Source: an uncultured Oscillospiraceae bacterium
Lineage (GTDB): Bacteria; Bacillota; Clostridia; Oscillospirales; Oscillospiraceae
Length of the DNA: 27,311 nucleotides
Direction: 5' to 3'
Assembly: GCA_964496235.1 (NCBI GenBank)
Contig: CAZBYU010000002.1
Span: 1 to 27,311, forward strand
Numbering within the stretch: the stretch's first letter is position 1; the number at the start of each line of letters is the position of its first letter. This document shows, piece by piece, positions 2,021 through 7,621 of this stretch. A program made the translations under genes and the position numbers. Below the pieces are notes generated by a model. That model was given only the letters and a program-made list of their open reading frames with translations. It ran no database searches and was not told the DNA's origin.

Positions 2021-3436
2021 TTACTTCACAGTGAACGTCATCTTGCAGCTACCGTCGGCAAAGACGAACTCTATCTCATGCTCGCCGTTATCAAGTGCTT
2101 CAAGCACATCTGCTGAGATGACGACCTCGCCGTCGGAGTTTATCTCAAACTCAACCTCAACACCGTCGATATAGACTTTTTCGACCTTATCCGAATTGAG
2201 GAGTATTCTTAATTCCTCTCCACAGCCCTTGATCCATTCCGCGTCCTTACCCTCTACGACATAGTAGCTCGGCGTGAGGAAATCAACAGCGGTCGAAGAT
2301 GCCGCAGAAGGCACGTAAGAACCGACTAAGGTGGTCATCTCTACGCTTGAAATCTGTCCTTGGGTCATTTTACGAATATCTGTGGTGACAGAGCCTTTAG
2401 AGGTGAGCTTGGACGTGTCGGGAGTGACTTTGACACCGGTATTTCTGTTCGCCCCGCCTTTTCCGATGGGCGCACCCACATCGCCATCAAAAGGATACAT
2501 ATCTTCGGTTTCCGCTTTGACCTGTGCATTGTCGGAAATGACGATAGTGCCGACGTTACCGGTGGCTGAGCCTGTGCCTATGGCGGCACCGCCTGAGGAT
2601 TTTGCGTTGACCGTTGCGTCACCGGAGATTTCTATACCGCTGACATCCTTTGTTCCTGAGCCGCCGCCTATACCTGCACCGTAATGACTGCTTGCAGTTA
2701 CATTCGCATCGCCGGAAATGACGATGTCACGAGCGTATTCGGTATCGCCACCGCCCGCGCCTATACCCGCGCCGCCGACACCGCCGCCGGCATTTATCGT
2801 GCCGCCGGTAATATGAATGCCCTCGGCATTGCCACCATTGCCTCCGCCGATAGCGGCAGAGCTACGCGCACCGCTTGCATTGATGGTTCCGCCCTCGATT
2901 GTGATGTTGCTCGTGCTGTTATTATTAGACCCGCCTATGCCCGCGCCGAGACCGTGAATGTTCTTTGCGACAAGGCTACCGTTGTCATCTTTATCCGTTA
3001 TCGTGAGGGTTCCCTTGCTGTCTGCGTCGTTCTTTTCAAGACCCGCACGACCATTTTCGGATAGCTCAATGGAAAGGCTGTTATCTCCGTCAAGCTCTAT
3101 GTTCACATTGCCGTCACCGGTGACTTTTATGGGGGCGGCATCACTGTCAACATAGTCCAAATCAATCTTGAGGTCATCAATGGTGACATTCGCCGTTGCT
3201 CCAGCCTCGGCATTTATAGAAACCGTATTTGTATTGGAAGAACCTGTTATTATGGGGTTAGAGTCGGCAACATTCTGTTGTCCGTTATCCTGTGAAACGG
3301 TTTGCCCACTTTCAGTCGCACTGACCGTTATACTGCCAACAGCTATATCCCAGTCCGCAAAAGCCGCACCTCCCATTGAGAGAACCAAGCACAGCGCAAG
3401 CGCGAGGGAAAACACAGTCTTAGCAAGCTTCTTCAT
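2021..3436 (-). CDS. Secreted Gly-rich repeat (probable beta-solenoid) protein with a C-terminal Ig-like domain
   Basis: Start re-assigned to ATG 3436 (GGAGG at 3444-3448), giving 471 aa. Sec signal peptide MKKLAKTVFSLALALCLVLSMGGAAFA. Six A(G/A/P)IG-type Gly motifs alternate with I-x-I-x-G strands. No LPxTG or SLH anchor is visible. Confidence 0.85.
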   Translation of the reverse strand: MKKLAKTVFSLALALCLVLSMGGAAFADWDIAVGSITVSATESGQTVSQDNGQQNVADSNPIITGSSNTNTVSINAEAGATANVTIDDLKIDLDYVDSDAAPIKVTGDGNVNIELDGDNSLSIELSENGRAGLEKNDADSKGTLTITDKDDNGSLVAKNIHGLGAGIGGSNNNSTSNITIEGGTINASGARSSAAIGGGNGGNAEGIHITGGTINAGGGVGGAGIGAGGGDTEYARDIVISGDANVTASSHYGAGIGGGSGTKDVSGIEISGDATVNAKSSGGAAIGTGSATGNVGTIVISDNAQVKAETEDMYPFDGDVGAPIGKGGANRNTGVKVTPDTSKLTSKGSVTTDIRKMTQGQISSVEMTTLVGSYVPSAASSTAVDFLTPSYYVVEGKDAEWIKGCGEELRILLNSDKVEKVYIDGVEVEFEINSDGEVVISADVLEALDNGEHEIEFVFADGSCKMTFTVK

Positions 3437-3512
3437 TTTTCTACCTCCATAATAAATTGTGCATAATCGGCTCATGCATATTAAAACCAACAGTAAGATT
3501 GATCATATGTCA

Positions 3513-3699: not shown

Positions 3700-4149
3700 T
3701 CACTCTCTGTTTGCTTTCCAATAGTTCAGCTTGGGCAACATCGCGCTCATATGGTCGCGTACCTGCTCGCGCGACCATTCCGCGCTCGACATATGCTCAA
3801 CGCAGAAGTCTATGAGCGCGTCCATGTCAGTATAGGTATGCTTGCCGTCGACATAGCACCATTTGCAATACTCCTCGTTGATGCCGCCGTCGGGGTCGCG
3901 GCTCATGAGCGTGTCATCAAGCGGCATGCCACAACACTGGCACACCAGATGACAGGGCGAACCCAAAAGAGTGTTGATGGAGACATCGAAAAGTTTGGAA
4001 AGAAGCTTGAGTGTATCCGTGTTCGGCTGGGTATCTCCGTTTTCCCAGCGGGAAACCGCCTGACGCGTGACGAACAGTTTTTCAGCAAGCTCGTCTTGGG
4101 AAAGTCCGTTTTTCGTGCGAAGCTGATATATGACATCTTTGGTATCCAT
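3700..4149 (-). CDS. XRE-family HTH transcriptional regulator with a C-terminal zinc-ribbon domain
   Basis: Start re-assigned to ATG 4149 (GGAGG RBS), giving 149 aa. HTH: LRTKNGLSQDELAEKLFVTRQAVSRWENG. C-terminal CQCCGMP...YCKWCY. Confidence 0.9.
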   Translation of the reverse strand: MDTKDVIYQLRTKNGLSQDELAEKLFVTRQAVSRWENGDTQPNTDTLKLLSKLFDVSINTLLGSPCHLVCQCCGMPLDDTLMSRDPDGGINEEYCKWCYVDGKHTYTDMDALIDFCVEHMSSAEWSREQVRDHMSAMLPKLNYWKANRE

Positions 4150-4224
4150 ATTATAATTCCTCCATTTAAGAAAGCGATGAACAAACAACGCACTCACAGC
4201 CTGTATCTTTGTTGCGTTAAGGGT

Positions 4225-4389: not shown

Positions 4390-5097
4390 TCAGCAACAGA
4401 AGAAGCGATAGCCGCAGGTAGGACCGAGGCACATATTGAGCGCACACATCGTAAGACAGAGCTTGTCTGTACTCAAGCCGGTGGAATAGTGGGTGGAATA
4501 GTTATCATAGAAGTCTCCCCCGCTTTGAAGCTGTTCCAAAAGGCGGCGGTACTGCTCATTACCCGGCTCTATCTCAACGGCACGTCGAGCGGCCTCGAGC
4601 GCGGCGATTTTGTTGCCCATATACATATTCGCACCGGCGGTGAGATAATACCACTTGCCGTCACGCTCGGCAACAGGGACACCGGACAGGGCGTTCAGAG
4701 CCTCGCGGTACATGCCGTTGCGAATATAGTTTTTCGCGGCGGTATACTCACTGCGTTCGTTTTGACGCGCCGCGCCGGTAGATCCGCCGAAATCGCCCCA
4801 ATCGCTCCAGCCAGACCATGACCCCCATGGGTTATACCCACCGGAGGAATAACCGCCGTAGCCACCGTAGCCGCCCTGCGAGGAATATCCGTATCCCCGG
4901 GGATCGCTCTGCTGAGCTGTGCCGTTTTTAATTTGGTCATAGGCGGCGTTTATTTCGTTCATCTTCTGCGCTGCCGTGGGGTCGTTGGGGTTGAGATCCG
5001 GGTGATATTTCTTCGTCAAGTCCCGATATGCTTTTTTCACCTCGTCGTCCGTCGCGTCGCGCGACACGCCGAGTACCTTATACGGGTCCTGATACAT
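4390..5097 (-). CDS. Class C J-domain (DnaJ-domain) protein with Gly/Tyr/Trp-rich linker, TPR-like helices and Cys-rich C-terminus
   Basis: Start re-assigned to ATG 5097, giving 235 aa. DPYKVLGV...KKYHPD...INAAYD is a J-domain with an intact HPD. TPR-like [18 protein letters not shown]. Tail [23 protein letters not shown]. It lacks the CxxCxGxG repeats of canonical DnaJ. Confidence 0.9.
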
Positions 5098-5938
5098 CTG
5101 TTTTTCCTTCCTTTTCTGCCGCCTTATGCGGGGAAAACTTGCTGTCGAATTGTTGCCATATACCAAGGCAGAGAATGTTCTTCAAAATGTCCGCGTCCTG
5201 GACAAGCGGGAGCTTATCGAACCAATACACGCACTCGCTCATCAGCATCTTCAGTATGCCTCGAAACCGCACCTCATTGTCAAGCCCATAGTAACGGCGA
5301 AACGGATTGTAGCTTTCATGCCGGGTGTCCGCGTCAAGATCCATCACCGCGTCCATGATATACACAGCACGACCGAGCGAGTTGCCGAGGGCGCGAAGCG
5401 TATCGCCCCAGCGATCATCTCTCCACACGAGAAGCTCACCCATCAGTGCGCCGAAGGTTGCCGCGGCGGAGTCGGGGGATTCATCACGCGCTCTTTCCAG
5501 ATCGTCAAGCGCGGCAAGGGATCTGGTCATAGCCCTATGCTGTCGCGGATAAGCATCGCAAAGAGACAAATATGTGCGCCGAAGTGCACGAGCCTCCGCA
5601 AGCGATGCGAGGTTTGCGTCATCGCGCCAATCGTCCATACATTTGAGATAGGCGAGCATGACGTTCATATCCGCGGCGTAATCCGTAGCCGCAGAGGAAA
5701 AAAAGGCATGTGGCTTTTTCGGGTGCGCGATACAACGAAGCTCCCCCGCGCTCTCCTCCGGCTCATAAAGCGAACCCAGAAGAAGCACGAGGAAGGTCAA
5801 ATCATAATTAAGCGTGAGCCGTGAAATCTCTCCGTGGCGTATTTTCAGTGCGCGGCACAGCCCGCAATAACACGCACGATAACGCGCCTGCTGTTCCTCT
5901 GTCAATGCGCCGGGCAATGCGGCGAGATAGCCGAACAT
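5078..5938 (-). CDS. DUF5685-like conserved hypothetical protein
   Basis: 286 aa. MFGY start, YCGLC, LNYD, CxxHP, KxxDDWRD and YxxDAxxDxxxD...YNP motifs match my recollection of DUF5685. Overlaps the J-domain gene by 20 nt. Confidence 0.8.
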
Positions 5939-5939
5939 A

Positions 5940-6341
5940 TCAGGTCTTTCCGAAGAAGGATGTGCCGCATTTACGGCAGACTATTTTAACCTTGCCGCGG
6001 CGGCGGGGAACACGCAGACTCGTCCGACAGCTCGGACATGTGAAGAACTTATAGTCCTTGCGCTGAATCCAACGCTCACGGCGGAGGCGACACCATGCGT
6101 CAAACTTATATTTCAGGCGCATATACTTGCCGTTTTCTTCGCGGCGTTTATACACGTTGCGGGAAAACATGCGAAAATATATAAAACCGAGCAGGACAAT
6201 CGCCAACGGATAGACAAGACCGCTTATGCTCTTAACGAAGCTTGCCAGCAACAGCAAAATAAGATCTACCACCAGCAAAAACATATTCAGCTGGTCATTG
6301 CCGTTTCTTCCGGCCATAAACCGTGCCAAACGCTCTCTCAT
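5940..6341 (-). CDS. Small membrane protein with a C-terminal zinc ribbon
   Basis: 133 aa. Two hydrophobic helices after FMAGRNGNDQL, a basic linker, then CPSC...CRKC. One-nt gap to the next ATG. Confidence 0.85.
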   Translation of the reverse strand: MRERLARFMAGRNGNDQLNMFLLVVDLILLLLASFVKSISGLVYPLAIVLLGFIYFRMFSRNVYKRREENGKYMRLKYKFDAWCRLRRERWIQRKDYKFFTCPSCRTSLRVPRRRGKVKIVCRKCGTSFFGKT

Positions 6342-6373
6342 TTACTCACCTTAATACTGCATTTTTGTATATG

Positions 6374-6409
6374 GTGATTTTATCACAATGATGTTCTAAA
6401 ACATCACAA
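6374..6409 (-). promoter_or_regulatory. Extended -10 and repeated motifs upstream of the J-domain operon
   Basis: TG-A-TAAAAT on the - strand (6377-6385). ATCACAA direct repeat at 6382 and 6403 (21-nt period). Palindrome TGATGTT-N4-AACATCA at 6389-6406. Confidence 0.4.
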
Positions 6410-6472
6410 AATTGTTAATAATCAATACTTTGAAAGGCTCGGTAGCATCAGGCGCATACACGAGGATATGAA

Positions 6473-6503
6473 AGGCAGACGGCTGTTCTTCAGCCGCCCG
6501 CCT
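6473..6503 (-). terminator. Probable terminator downstream of ddl
   Basis: - strand AGGCGGGCGGCUG-AAGAA-CAGCCGUCUGCCU then UUC. Two mismatches become G-U pairs only on the - strand. Confidence 0.6.
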
Positions 6504-6556
6504 GATAATGGTCTGTATTAATATCGCGTTTTGCGCTAAAAAGAGGCAATTAATGC

Positions 6557-7621
6557 TTACAGACTCTTCTTACGCGCGTCGAGGGAGAGGAACACTATCT
6601 TTTCGCAAAGCTCGGCATAGCTCATACCCTCTACGGCGGCGGCACGCGGAATAAGGCTGTTCGGGGTCATGCCGGGGAGGGTGTTGACCTCCAGACACCA
6701 AGCACGTCCCTCCTCGTCCAAGATAAAGTCCGTGCGGGAATAAACCGAGAGACCGAGTGCGCGGTGGAATTTCAACGCCGCTTCGCCCATGAGCGCGTGT
6801 TCCTCCGGGGTGATAGGCGCAGGGCAGAGTTCTCTCGCGCCCTCGTCACCGGACTGATACTTGGCAACATAGTCGAACCTGCCCTCGGGTGGAACGATCT
6901 CGATGGCGGAGAGATAGCGATCGTCGAGGACGGGGACGGTCATCTCACGACCTGTTATCTTGCGCTCGACAACGGCGCGGTCGGAGTATTTCAGCACCTC
7001 GGCAAGACCGGCTCTCAGCTCATCGCGCGTCTCGGCAATGACGACACCGATGGACGAGCCGCCGTTGACCGCCTTAATCACGCAGGGAAGGAAAAGCTCC
7101 TCGGTGAGAGAGGGGATATCGTCAGTAGTATAGGTGATCTCGCGCCACTCGGGAGTCAGAACACCAGCAGACTCCATAATGCGCTTTGCAACCGCCTTGT
7201 CCATTGCCATGGCACTGCCCAAGGGCGCAGAGCCGGTATACGGCACACCCAAGAGGTCAAGAGCGGACTGGATTTTTCCGTCCTCCCCGTCCGCGCCGTG
7301 CAGACCGAGGAAAACGCAGTCGGCAAGACGGCAAAGCTCCAATACGTTTTTGCCGAGGCGGCTGGGGCTTTTATCGCGGCGGGCGGCTTTCACGGCGGCA
7401 ATATCAGGCGCGGTGCGACCGACGGCGACATCGCCGCAGAAGCCGTCCGGCACATCGAAAACAGACTCCAAAGAGCCGTCATAATCCTCCAAGCCCATGA
7501 ACATGTCGACAAACACGGCCTTGTGACCCAATGAGCGCAAAGCGCGGCAGACCGATGTCCCCGTGACTAGAGCGACATGACGCTCAGAGCTTACGCCGCC
7601 ACCCAAAACAACTATTTTCAT
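6557..7621 (-). CDS. ddl: D-alanine--D-alanine ligase
   Basis: 354 aa. VLGGGVSSER, LHGADGEDG, GSAMAMDK, GGSSIG, omega loop FDYVAKY, EVNTLPGMT...SLIP. AAAGGA RBS. Confidence 0.95.
   Translation of the reverse strand: MKIVVLGGGVSSERHVALVTGTSVCRALRSLGHKAVFVDMFMGLEDYDGSLESVFDVPDGFCGDVAVGRTAPDIAAVKAARRDKSPSRLGKNVLELCRLADCVFLGLHGADGEDGKIQSALDLLGVPYTGSAPLGSAMAMDKAVAKRIMESAGVLTPEWREITYTTDDIPSLTEELFLPCVIKAVNGGSSIGVVIAETRDELRAGLAEVLKYSDRAVVERKITGREMTVPVLDDRYLSAIEIVPPEGRFDYVAKYQSGDEGARELCPAPITPEEHALMGEAALKFHRALGLSVYSRTDFILDEEGRAWCLEVNTLPGMTPNSLIPRAAAVEGMSYAELCEKIVFLSLDARKKSL

Follow-up and report, generated by a model that had tools for sequence, protein, structure and literature searches.

The window analyzed here is the whole 27,311-nucleotide stretch from an uncultured Oscillospiraceae bacterium, and its minus strand carries three adjoining genes arranged as one operon in the ORF list (Table 1). 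In the order of reading, these encode a small membrane protein with a zinc ribbon (ZnR), a protein of the DUF5685 family and a partner protein composed of a J domain, a TPR domain and a cysteine tail. The ZnR and DUF5685 genes are separated by 1 nt (position 5939), and the DUF5685 and J genes overlap by 20 nt (5078–5097). The third ORF was listed as 4390–5166; alignment of homologues sets its true start at the ATG at 5097, giving a protein of 235 aa. With this start, the original prediction of three tightly coupled genes holds, and the cysteine clusters assigned to their products (CPSC/CRKC, YCGLC and a six-Cys tail) are all present.

Table 1. Positions of the operon, its leader and selected protein features within the window
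Feature	Position	Strand	Basis
ZnR, 133 aa	5940..6341	-	ORF list, weak Zn_ribbon_4 match, 13-sequence alignment A7
DUF5685 protein, 286 aa	5078..5938	-	PF18937 match, AF2 model
DUF5685 first Asp-rich motif D102-D-W-R-D106	5621..5635	-	alignment A1, model
DUF5685 second acidic motif D196-x3-D200-x3-D204	5327..5353	-	alignment A1, model
DUF5685 three invariant cysteines C25, C28, C69	5732..5866	-	alignment A1, model
Partner protein, 235 aa, J/TPR/Cys tail	4390..5097	-	PF00226, AF2 model, alignment A2
Cysteine-string tail of the partner	4393..4467	-	census of 113 partners
Leader between ddl and the operon	6342..6556	-	read from sequence

Behind ddl, the leader shows a hairpin with a T-run. It also holds an AT-rich segment that resembles a promoter, and a ribosome-binding site (AAGGTGAG) precedes 6341. 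Because of this terminator-like hairpin with its T-run, the ribosome-binding site, and a promoter-like site belonging to the HTH gene downstream of the operon, the three genes look like a transcription unit of their own, as judged from the sequence. As the leader signs were read by eye, a consensus scan of the leader listed no strong sigma-70 site, and Rfam gave no match in or around the operon, leader included, the operon start is a position that we infer. The ddl gene adjoins the module only in close relatives (7 loci) and is thus treated as local synteny.

ZnR has an N-terminal RFMxGRxGxDxL motif, two hydrophobic helices (2-TM), a basic FRxFSRN..KRRxEN stretch and, at the C-terminus, a CPxC...CxxC zinc ribbon that is placed in the cytoplasm; Pfam gives a weak Zn_ribbon_4 match. 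In the 13-sequence alignment (A7), G11, R12, G14, D16, C102, P103, C105, C122 and C125 are invariant. For ZnR, the ESM Atlas yields nothing more specific than Bacillota clusters labeled "Zn-finger containing protein", none of them named.

Predicted fold and conserved residues of DUF5685

The middle protein matches PF18937 over residues 1–265 (profile positions 1–271 of 272; Pfam, E 7e-88, 295 bits against a cut-off of 26.7), which confirms the DUF5685-like identity proposed earlier. A literature search found no published function for DUF5685. The AF2 model of the protein (pLDDT 93.2, pTM 0.90) superposes in VIA-align on hexaprenyl-PP synthase 2azj with Z 18.5 and rmsd 3.1 over 234 of 286 residues; other matches are MoeN5 (Z 16.3), Ord1 (9v4g, Z 14.0) and squalene/dehydrosqualene synthases (Z about 11.7). 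[quoted passage not shown] DUF5685 is predicted from its model to be a soluble enzyme with the trans-IDS (class I isoprenoid synthase) fold. The predicted model is an all-alpha bundle superposable on the isoprenoid synthase fold superfamily, and it bears the two acidic metal-binding motifs of that superfamily, which would, given the fold, face each other across a cavity.

In the 46-sequence DUF5685 alignment (A1), D102 of the first motif is invariant and D106 is present in 45 of 46 sequences. This motif ends helix 83–107 of the model and may be the equivalent of the FARM on helix D, on the basis of helix order rather than residue-level superposition. In the second motif, which ends helix 178–199, D196 and D200 are invariant and D204 occurs in 45/46 sequences; with their spacing of i, i+4 and i+8, the three Asp residues share one helix face. 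Invariant Y193 and N211 flank the motif before and after, and the consensus ahead of it is Y193-I-x-D196, without a preceding Gln. The three cysteines C25, C28 and C69 are conserved in 46/46 sequences. C25 and C28 lie on helix 14–35 of the model and C69 tips an inserted beta-hairpin (63–81); together they are presumed to form a metal site, for which the possible fourth ligand H71 is not conserved. E148 is a further invariant residue, D156 is near-invariant, and R40, K75 and R190 are conserved basic residues.

Sequence comparison gives no corresponding link. Only PF18937, and not PF00348, is returned for DUF5685 by hmmscan; hhalign of A1 against six PF00348 neighbors gives E 0.12 (probability 0.5%); and the best match in a PDB sequence search, nonaprenyl-PP synthase, has a non-significant E of 0.74. 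The kinship between DUF5685 and trans-IDS thus rests on the predicted fold.

The partner protein and its cysteine tail

The partner consists of a J domain with the HPD motif (residues 1–60), a disordered Gly/Tyr linker (62–107), a 2.5-repeat TPR domain (110–198) and the Cys tail. PF00226 (DnaJ) matches residues 4–58 with E 8e-20, KKYHPD is present, and Pfam matches to TPR are weak. The pLDDT values of the AF2 model are about 93 for the J domain, below 50 for the linker and 92–97 for the TPR. Against generic TPR structures the TPR domain scores Z about 12, within the range of common helical repeats; as a generic TPR, it was dropped as a clue to function. The partner has no DnaJ_C or DnaJ_CXXCXGXG match, and none of the NCBIfam models for full-length DnaJ comes near its cut-off. 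With an HPD and with neither zinc-finger nor DnaJ_C domain, the partner would be classed as a class C J-domain protein whose J domain looks functional, in agreement with what had been proposed from the window's sequence.

All cysteines of the window's partner lie in its tail, which has 6 Cys, ends in -CC, belongs to the hydrophobic "type B" and is a moderately hydrophobic predicted helix. A census of 113 partners indicates that this concentration is general: the median number of Cys is 7 in the last 30 aa and 0 elsewhere, and tails hold 6–11 Cys within about 25 residues. The C-terminal residue is Cys in 85 of 113 partners (75%), compared with 1.5% of this genome's long ORFs, and 56/113 (50%) end in -CC. 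The best 19-residue hydropathy of the tails is 1.1–1.4, less than a membrane span typically reaches. In the acidic type-A tails the cysteines are spaced in a fixed pattern (CxxCxxxxCxDCCCECMGGDLIxCC); type-B tails have no constant spacing and contain much Leu, Met and Phe. Tail sequence drifts, and Cys-richness and the C-terminal Cys stay. Pfam and PDB searches with the tails gave no family match and no solved-structure match; the PDB matches in the tail search fell on a His-rich run before the tail.

Of 116 partner ORFs, 105 retain an intact HPD. The J domain or its HPD has been lost beside DUF5685 at seven loci (L024, L026, L027, L037, L039, L041 and L028). Since the partner is reduced to TPR and Cys tail in several lineages, or lacks the HPD, the conserved core of the partner at the sequence level is the TPR with the C-terminal cysteine string and not the J domain.

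Conservation, fusions and genomic neighbors

Across Clostridia, DUF5685 and its partner are inseparable. Among 50 loci sampled across the phylum, about 40 have the two genes side by side, in many cases with an overlap, and a J/TPR/Cys-tail gene directly follows DUF5685 in all 80 of the best species-level loci, which were found with the narrower alignment A3; relatives occur in at least 578 species genomes. The neighborhood conservation that the original prediction had named as a check is thereby observed, and the module is conserved in hundreds of Clostridia species. The DUF5685 family comprises about 7,000 clusters at 50% identity, and many carriers are abundant gut Oscillospiraceae, Christensenellales and Lachnospiraceae.

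The pair usually has a membrane protein next to it, and two kinds occur. ZnR adjoins it in 53/80 loci, ahead of DUF5685 in some and behind the J gene in others, and an unrelated polytopic membrane protein, M170, replaces ZnR in other lineages. The zinc-ribbon protein thus stands as a frequent neighbor in the module as first described, but it is replaceable. CECMGGD-type tails pair with M170, and hydrophobic tails with ZnR or with neither. In the window's genome, a metagenome-assembled genome (MAG) that is 75% complete, no M170 homologue was found.

In three genera, DUF5685 carries its own acidic Cys-rich C-terminal tail ending in CxC. This is a genuine fusion, and in the same three genera a true polyprenyl synthase gene (PF00348) follows the tail-fused DUF5685. 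Other apparent DUF5685 forms of 350–380 aa among the representatives look like frameshifted read-through or start-codon extensions, and a search through proteins of 717–2045 aa turned up no long fused form, which is weak evidence. PF00348 is also found in the cluster of a second divergent DUF5685 clade. A clade with Hsp70, PF00348 and DUF2232 keeps DUF5685, a membrane protein and the three Cys, and its cysteine tail is absent.

Nine species have an additional Hsp70 gene immediately upstream of DUF5685; the 8 of these Hsp70s that were placed in a tree group together, separate from the housekeeping dnaK. These private paralogs would be indirect support for stimulation of an Hsp70 ATPase by the partner. 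Divergent clusters carry lid-less Hsp70s. To judge from gene content, the J domain, the private Hsp70 paralogs and the lid-less Hsp70s tie the module to Hsp70, as the original prediction had supposed. Its further proposal, that the J-protein recruits DnaK to DUF5685 as a client, proves incomplete, as the J domain is lost in several lineages and DUF5685 is, by prediction, an isoprenoid-synthase-fold enzyme with invariant metal-binding-type Asp motifs rather than a passive client. A plain chaperone–client relation, in which the J-protein only brings DnaK to DUF5685 and/or ZnR for folding, assembly or regulation and the tail undergoes no chemistry, is hard to reconcile with partners that persist beside DUF5685 without a J domain or HPD. 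The intact HPD, a Gly/Tyr linker resembling a G/F region, the 20-nt overlap, which suggests co-translation, and the private Hsp70 paralogs would suit such a relation. It is quite unlikely, and it would account neither for the invariant Asp motifs of catalytic type nor for the Cys tail, its fusion to DUF5685 or the neighboring PF00348 genes.

The PF00348 neighbors bear on another possibility, namely that DUF5685 makes or remodels an isoprenoid lipid (polyprenyl, squalene-like or a polyprenyl phosphate derivative) at the membrane, with the TPR/Cys-tail protein as a tail-anchored adaptor. Chain-elongating trans-IDS and MoeN5, the closest folds, act on lipids, and the tail-less clade still keeps DUF5685, a membrane protein, PF00348 and Hsp70. 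DUF2232 proteins are proposed ECF S-subunits with a cell-wall/lipid II phenotype (10.64898/2026.05.13.724699), which would fit a lipid-related role, and the window's tail, a moderately hydrophobic predicted helix, might serve as an anchor. On the other hand, the hydropathy of the tails is low for a membrane span, and a lipid-synthesizing role leaves unexplained why cysteines are confined to the extreme C-terminus, often as the last residue, and why the enzyme of one family has such a tail fused to it. M170, moreover, has no profile link to DUF2232: hhalign against DUF2232-like proteins gives a non-significant E of 0.016 (probability 2.8%). Such a lipid enzyme is rather unlikely, and so, to the same degree, is the adaptor role that goes with it, in which the partner would tether DUF5685 to the membrane protein and, via J, to Hsp70.

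Possible lipidation of the tail and comparison with known systems

In the favored reading, which is possible without being probable, the cysteine tail would be prenylated by DUF5685, and the partner, as a recruiter of DnaK, would thereby be tied to the membrane next to ZnR. DUF5685 would bind an allylic prenyl diphosphate, e.g., FPP from the cell's IspA-type synthase, via its Asp motifs and would move the prenyl group onto at least one thiol of the partner's C-terminal tail, with the TPR acting as a docking handle. The lipidated tail would hold the partner to the membrane on its cytoplasmic side, beside ZnR or, in other lineages, M170, and its J domain would switch on DnaK or a private Hsp70 for a membrane-proximal task.

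Several lines of evidence point to prenylation. The predicted fold (pLDDT 93) resembles trans-IDS (Z 18.5) and also MoeN5 and Ord1, and the Asp and Cys residues named above are invariant or nearly so. The partner gene lies directly downstream of DUF5685, often overlapping it, and a tail whose sequence drifts while Cys-richness and the C-terminal Cys persist would fit a modification substrate. The fusion of a Cys tail to DUF5685, a Rosetta-stone arrangement with PF00348 next to it, the presence of PF00348 in the cluster of the second divergent clade and the correspondence between membrane partner and tail type are all consistent with this reading, and a single IspA-like PF00348 gene in the window's genome could supply the donor. 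Precedents exist for both halves of the scheme: trans-IDS-like enzymes prenylate peptides (PMC13290415), and a eukaryotic cysteine-string J-protein is anchored by lipidation (PMC4447612).

Other observations argue against prenylation. Characterized trans-IDS-like peptide prenyltransferases modify Trp and carry, before the second motif, a Gln that recognizes the Trp indole (PMC13290415), and neither feature applies to DUF5685. Bacteria, moreover, are not known to S-prenylate their own proteins. No tail is found in the clade that carries Hsp70, PF00348 and DUF2232, so that the chemistry common to the family may not involve the Cys tail. The fixed Cys spacing of type-A tails resembles a metal site as much as a lipidation site, the kinship to trans-IDS is one of predicted fold (hhalign against PF00348, E 0.12), and no clear dnaK was found in the window's genome, which is 75% complete.

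The type-A tails also bear on a possible role in metal or Fe–S maturation, in which the Cys tail would be a cluster scaffold that loads the three-Cys site of DUF5685 with the help of the J domain and Hsp70. IspG and IspH carry 3-Cys clusters, and HscB and HscA serve IscU; by analogy, the DUF5685 site would hold a [4Fe–4S] cluster with an open iron, or else a zinc ion. The three invariant Cys without a conserved fourth ligand, the spacing of type-A tails and the dedicated Hsp70 paralogs beside the module would be in keeping with this, and like HscB–HscA–IscU the module combines a specialized J-protein and a dedicated Hsp70 with a Cys-rich, presumably metal-binding partner. The idea comes close to the "Hsp70-dependent maturation" of the original prediction. 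As a whole it is unlikely: type-B tails, the kind found in the window, are unlike a cluster scaffold in their variable spacing and their many Leu, Met and Phe residues; the tails match no known metal-binding family; the membrane partner would have no reason to follow tail type; and the tail-less clade keeps the three Cys and Hsp70 but no scaffold. The module also differs from HscB–HscA–IscU in having no IscU-like domain and no iron–sulfur genes in its loci, and the partner is not of HscB type, as TIGR00714 (hscB) scores 20 bits (E 5e-4) against a cut-off of 46.75, over the J domain only.

Returning to prenylation, the closest enzymes for comparison are ComQ (with ComX), PalQ, the P domain of ChrPC and Ord1, which share with DUF5685 the isoprenoid-synthase alpha fold and the first Asp-rich motif. 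ComQ-type systems and the module both place the enzyme gene upstream of, and overlapping, the presumed substrate gene; ComQ-type modification occurs at or near a terminus, with PalQ needing a terminal residue, and the partner's tail is likewise terminal. DUF5685 differs from ComQ and PalQ in its Y-x-x-D-x3-D-x3-D motif, which lacks the Gln shared before the second motif by the ComQ/PalQ/ChrPC-P/Ord1 group, in the extra Cys3 site on an inserted beta-hairpin and in matching PF18937 only. The partner, too, is unlike ComQ-type substrates: it is a J/TPR protein of 200 aa that bears a Cys string and lacks a conserved Trp.

These likenesses also raise the idea of a ComQ/ComX-like signal, in which the tail would serve as core peptide. 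After prenylation and cleavage it would leave the cell as a lipopeptide, either a signal or an antimicrobial, and the membrane protein would be its exporter or receptor. Gene order and overlap recall comQ–comX, the trans-IDS-like fold is shared (PMC13290415), and a Peptidase_A24-like gene lies in the fusion-type cluster. However, the 80 loci share no conserved gene for a protease, an exporter or a sensor kinase, a J/TPR protein of 200 aa would have to act as the "leader", and one family carries the tail on the enzyme, which together make a secreted signal very unlikely.

If DUF5685 lipidates the tail, the module would provide a new class of acceptor for trans-IDS-like prenyltransferases, of interest for biocatalysis (PMC13290415). 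Lipidation of the tail by DUF5685 would in that case also explain Hsp70 activity at the membrane in Clostridia. If one of the rival explanations is true, the module would still represent a new pathway, for isoprenoids or for the handling of metals, that is linked to Hsp70 and has Hsp70 lineages of its own. To our knowledge, Clostridia lack DjlA, and no native protein S-prenylation is known in bacteria, so that lipidation by DUF5685 would be the first case. The full claim, that Clostridia possess a native S-prenylation system in which trans-IDS-fold DUF5685 lipidates the cysteine string of a J/TPR partner to give a lipid-anchored Hsp70 recruiter, as a bacterial analogue of DNAJC5/CSP and the first Cys-directed prenyltransferase of ComQ/PalQ type, is doubtful though conceivable.

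Eukaryotic protein prenylation offers a parallel in chemistry. Cys motifs such as -CC or -CXC form the C-terminus of Rab proteins, and -CC ends are thus common to Rab and to 50% of partners. CaaX farnesyl/geranylgeranyl transferases and Rab GGTase use a zinc site and a prenyl diphosphate, as, by analogy, DUF5685 would. These transferases are alpha–alpha barrel heterodimers whose fold is unrelated to that predicted for DUF5685, and no alpha–alpha barrel prenyltransferase is in the structure match list of the DUF5685 model.

Among J-proteins, the cysteine string of CSP (DNAJC5) of animals is internal and is palmitoylated by DHHC enzymes. In the partner, by comparison, the string is C-terminal, the neighboring enzyme has a prenyl-handling fold and lipidation is hypothetical. 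CSP and the partner are both class C J-proteins with an HPD and a cysteine string, which in CSP is the membrane anchor (PMC4447612). Homology is limited to the J domain, and the partner adds a TPR; the likeness is taken as one of analogy, not of family membership.

The class C J-proteins DjlA, acting with DnaK, and DjlB/DjlC, acting with the third Hsp70 HscC, are thought to bring Hsp70 to the membrane in E. coli. They have ordinary transmembrane helices as anchors, without the enzyme partner, Cys tail or TPR found here; as in the present module, where it occurs in 9 operons, a private Hsp70 paralog sometimes accompanies them.

Organization and conservation of the module

The start of the partner of DUF5685, a protein with a J domain, tetratricopeptide repeats (TPR) and a Cys tail, is placed at the ATG at 5097 because all aligned homologues open with M-x-x-DPYxVLGV; AAGGAAGGA lies 5' of this codon. 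Once this start is set, the 1-nt gap and 20-nt overlap originally predicted among the three ORFs are borne out. In Pfam, DUF5685 matches PF18937 (E 7e-88), the partner matches DnaJ (PF00226, E 8e-20) and, weakly, TPR, and ZnR, a 2-TM protein, gives nothing beyond a weak zinc-ribbon match; NCBIfam models yielded no further specific assignment for these window proteins. The ddl gene is followed by a hairpin with a T-run, an RBS lies ahead of 6341, and the regulator gene has a separate promoter-like site (4253-4225); thus, as read from the sequence, the three genes look like one transcription unit. The Rfam search returned no element in or around the operon.

Features of the module, its flanks, the partner protein and the tail fusions
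Feature	Position	Strand	Remarks
ZnR ORF	5940-6341	-	133 aa, ORF listing
DUF5685 ORF	5078-5938	-	286 aa, ORF listing
Partner ORF as listed	4390-5166	-	real start 5097 (ATG), 235 aa
ddl	6557-7621		flanking gene
HTH_3/Zn_ribbon_2 regulator	3700-4152	-	150 aa; flanking gene
Gly-rich protein	2021-3490	-	489 aa
J domain of partner	residues 1-60		confident in model
Gly/Tyr linker of partner	residues 62-107		disordered in model
TPR of partner, 2.5 repeats	residues 110-198		confident in model
C-terminal tail of partner			helical in model, low confidence
DUF5685-tail fusions	L131:1501-2628, L132, L133		three genera

The regulator combines an HTH_3 domain at its N-terminus with Zn_ribbon_2 (PF12674, E 7e-26) at its C-terminus, and its position next to the module is not conserved in other genomes. 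The Gly-rich protein starts with a signal-peptide-like segment, contains long repeats of the GGxGxG type and probably belongs to the surface or beta-helix proteins.

Of 401 genomes sampled from the phylum, 50 carry PF18937, and within the window's class most of the families sampled are represented; a pattern scan found DUF5685 relatives in at least 578 species genomes. A profile search over 1.84 billion representatives gave 6,994 DUF5685 clusters at E <= 1e-3, 2,646 of them at E <= 1e-30. Neighbourhoods were counted using HMMs made from the three window proteins. In the phylum sample, about 40 of the 50 loci have a J-type partner immediately 3' of DUF5685 and in the same orientation. This arrangement recurs in all 80 of the best further species-level loci (Oscillospiraceae, Christensenellales, Lachnospiraceae, Dehalobacter, Sedimentibacter, Tissierellales and Anaerofilum hominis), and ZnR adjoins the pair in 53/80. 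ZnR is found upstream of DUF5685, as in the window, or downstream of the J gene; the trio thus stays together although the place of ZnR within it changes. Other lineages have M170 instead of ZnR, an unrelated polytopic membrane protein of ~170 aa with no Pfam family. One genome of the same family as the window's genome contains two paralogous modules (L012 and L045). In one, the tail is hydrophobic and ZnR was not detected; the other has M170. This suggests that the two kinds are not redundant.

Predicted fold of DUF5685 and a candidate reaction

In an alignment of 46 diverse DUF5685 members, C25, C28, C69, D102, E148, G189, Y193, D196, D200 and N211 are invariant, D106, D156 and D204 are near-invariant, and basic character is kept at R40, K75 and R190. 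When the AlphaFold2 model from this alignment (pLDDT 93.2, pTM 0.90) is compared exhaustively with known structures, trans-isoprenyl diphosphate synthases rank first: the best match is a hexaprenyl-diphosphate synthase (2azj; Z 18.5, rmsd 3.1 Å, 234/286 residues), followed by the prenyltransferases MoeN5 (Z 16.3) and Ord1 (Z 14.0) and, lower, by squalene/dehydrosqualene synthases (~11.7) and terpene cyclases (~10). Foldseek places the same families on top (E ~1e-3). The acidic motifs lie at the C-terminal ends of model helices 83-107 and 178-199, which by helix order would be the counterparts of the helices on which this fold carries its first and its second Asp-rich motif, and the three Cys connect helix 14-35 to an inserted beta-hairpin (63-81) at its tip. 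By sequence, no link was obtained between DUF5685 and the polyprenyl synthetase family PF00348, and the putative isoprenyl-diphosphate-synthase-type assignment therefore rests on predicted fold and motif pattern.

The reading tentatively favoured here is that DUF5685 prenylates the Cys tail of the partner. The computed evidence covers the predicted fold, the motifs, the gene coupling, the tail statistics, the fusion, the PF00348 neighbours and the Hsp70 paralogs. As to donor, acceptor, transfer and localisation, we infer that a prenyl diphosphate would be used to alkylate thiols in the C-terminal tail, with docking via the partner TPR, and that the lipidated tail would anchor the J-protein at the membrane beside ZnR, where it might activate DnaK or a private Hsp70. 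That the module is a native bacterial system of protein S-prenylation is doubtful.

The mechanistically nearest known systems would be, by analogy, the ComQ/PalQ/Ord1 group and the eukaryotic cysteine-string protein. The former resembles the module in enzyme fold, gene pairing and the terminal modification proposed here. This likeness could also point to an exported lipopeptide, as for ComQ/ComX, which is very improbable. Known trans-IDS-like peptide prenyltransferases all act on Trp and all use a Gln (PMC13290415); both this Gln signature and the Trp acceptor are missing from the DUF5685 module, a weak point of the favoured reading. Cysteine-string protein is a J-protein anchored to membranes by lipidated Cys (PMC4447612) and appears to share only its J domain with the window's partner. 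The module is counted with neither group; its members belong to Pfam DUF5685 and class C J-proteins, and it is read as a putative transferase of trans-IDS-like type whose substrate would be the accompanying J-protein. The literature searched gives no function for DUF5685, which is named only once, where the domains of C. difficile R20291 are listed (PMC9403866), and a large J-protein survey mentions neither Clostridia, Firmicutes nor polyprenyl and contains no such architecture (PMC10410713).

The cysteine tail and its gene contexts

The partner TPR is generic in structure comparison (Z ~12). Among 113 partners, the median number of Cys is 7 in the last 30 residues versus 0 in the remainder; 85 end in Cys and 56 in -CC, against a background of 1.5% Cys-ending long ORFs in the window's genome. 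Type A tails are acidic with fixed spacing (CxxCxxLxCxDCCCECMGGDLIxCC), and every membrane partner detected beside them is M170, joined by ZnR in one locus (L028). Type B tails, the window's kind, are hydrophobic, Cys/Leu-rich and variable, and are seen with ZnR or without a detected third gene. For type A tails metal binding is equally possible, a weak point of the favoured reading; an Fe-S or zinc maturation system after the HscB/HscA/IscU pattern is, as an analogy, unlikely.

Five partners (L024, L026, L027, L037 and L039) consist of TPR and tail without a J domain, and HPD is lost in those of L041 and L028. The J domain is not universal, and the conserved unit is therefore DUF5685, TPR and Cys tail, to which the J domain is a frequent addition. 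The plain chaperone-client model of the original prediction, in which the J-protein recruits DnaK to its neighbours as clients, is judged quite unlikely.

DUF5685 itself bears an acidic Cys-rich C-terminal tail (…DCCCDCCDCDDLI…ECFC) in three genera, all from one family. These fusions are 63-73% identical to one another across all 376 residues, contain 17-18 Cys in the whole protein and have a His-rich run ahead of the tail; the genes 3' of them encode a small single-pass protein of 150 aa and, with a PF00348 match at E 3e-49, a true polyprenyl synthase. At L031, a Peptidase_A24-like membrane protein is also downstream, and hydrogenase maturation genes (hypF-like) are nearby.

A divergent DUF5685 clade (L032, L034, L035, L036, L050) has neither J gene nor Cys tail, and is a further weak point of the favoured reading. 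Its five-gene cluster comprises DUF5685, PF00348, a DUF2232-type membrane protein, a 160-aa unknown and a 510-aa lid-less Hsp70. That DUF5685 is a lipid-making enzyme, with the partner as a tail-anchored adaptor, is somewhat unlikely. The PF00348 synthase of this clade has N-D-x-N-N as its second Asp motif and ends in (E/S)WFW.

Hsp70 genes linked to DUF5685

In nine species DUF5685 is immediately preceded by a gene for a full-length Hsp70; the four of these genomes searched (those of L085, L098, L102 and L120) also have an ordinary dnaK within an hrcA-grpE-dnaK-dnaJ operon. The Hsp70 tree, which includes eight of the nine adjacent Hsp70s, groups these eight in one clade (100/100 support) that is separate from the housekeeping copies; the 510-aa Hsp70s make up another clade, which is very divergent. 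The fusion, the PF00348 clusters and the private Hsp70 thus support the prenyl and Hsp70 links each independently of the window's genes. In the window's own MAG (75% complete, 440 contigs), no clear dnaK was found, the best PF00012 match scoring 35 bits over a partial profile only, and there is only one other, weak J-domain match; the assembly probably missed the housekeeping chaperone operon. Elsewhere, a third Hsp70 copy of one genome (L139, G405:C52) adjoins a 352-aa J-protein and a ClpB-like gene, and forms a long branch in the tree.
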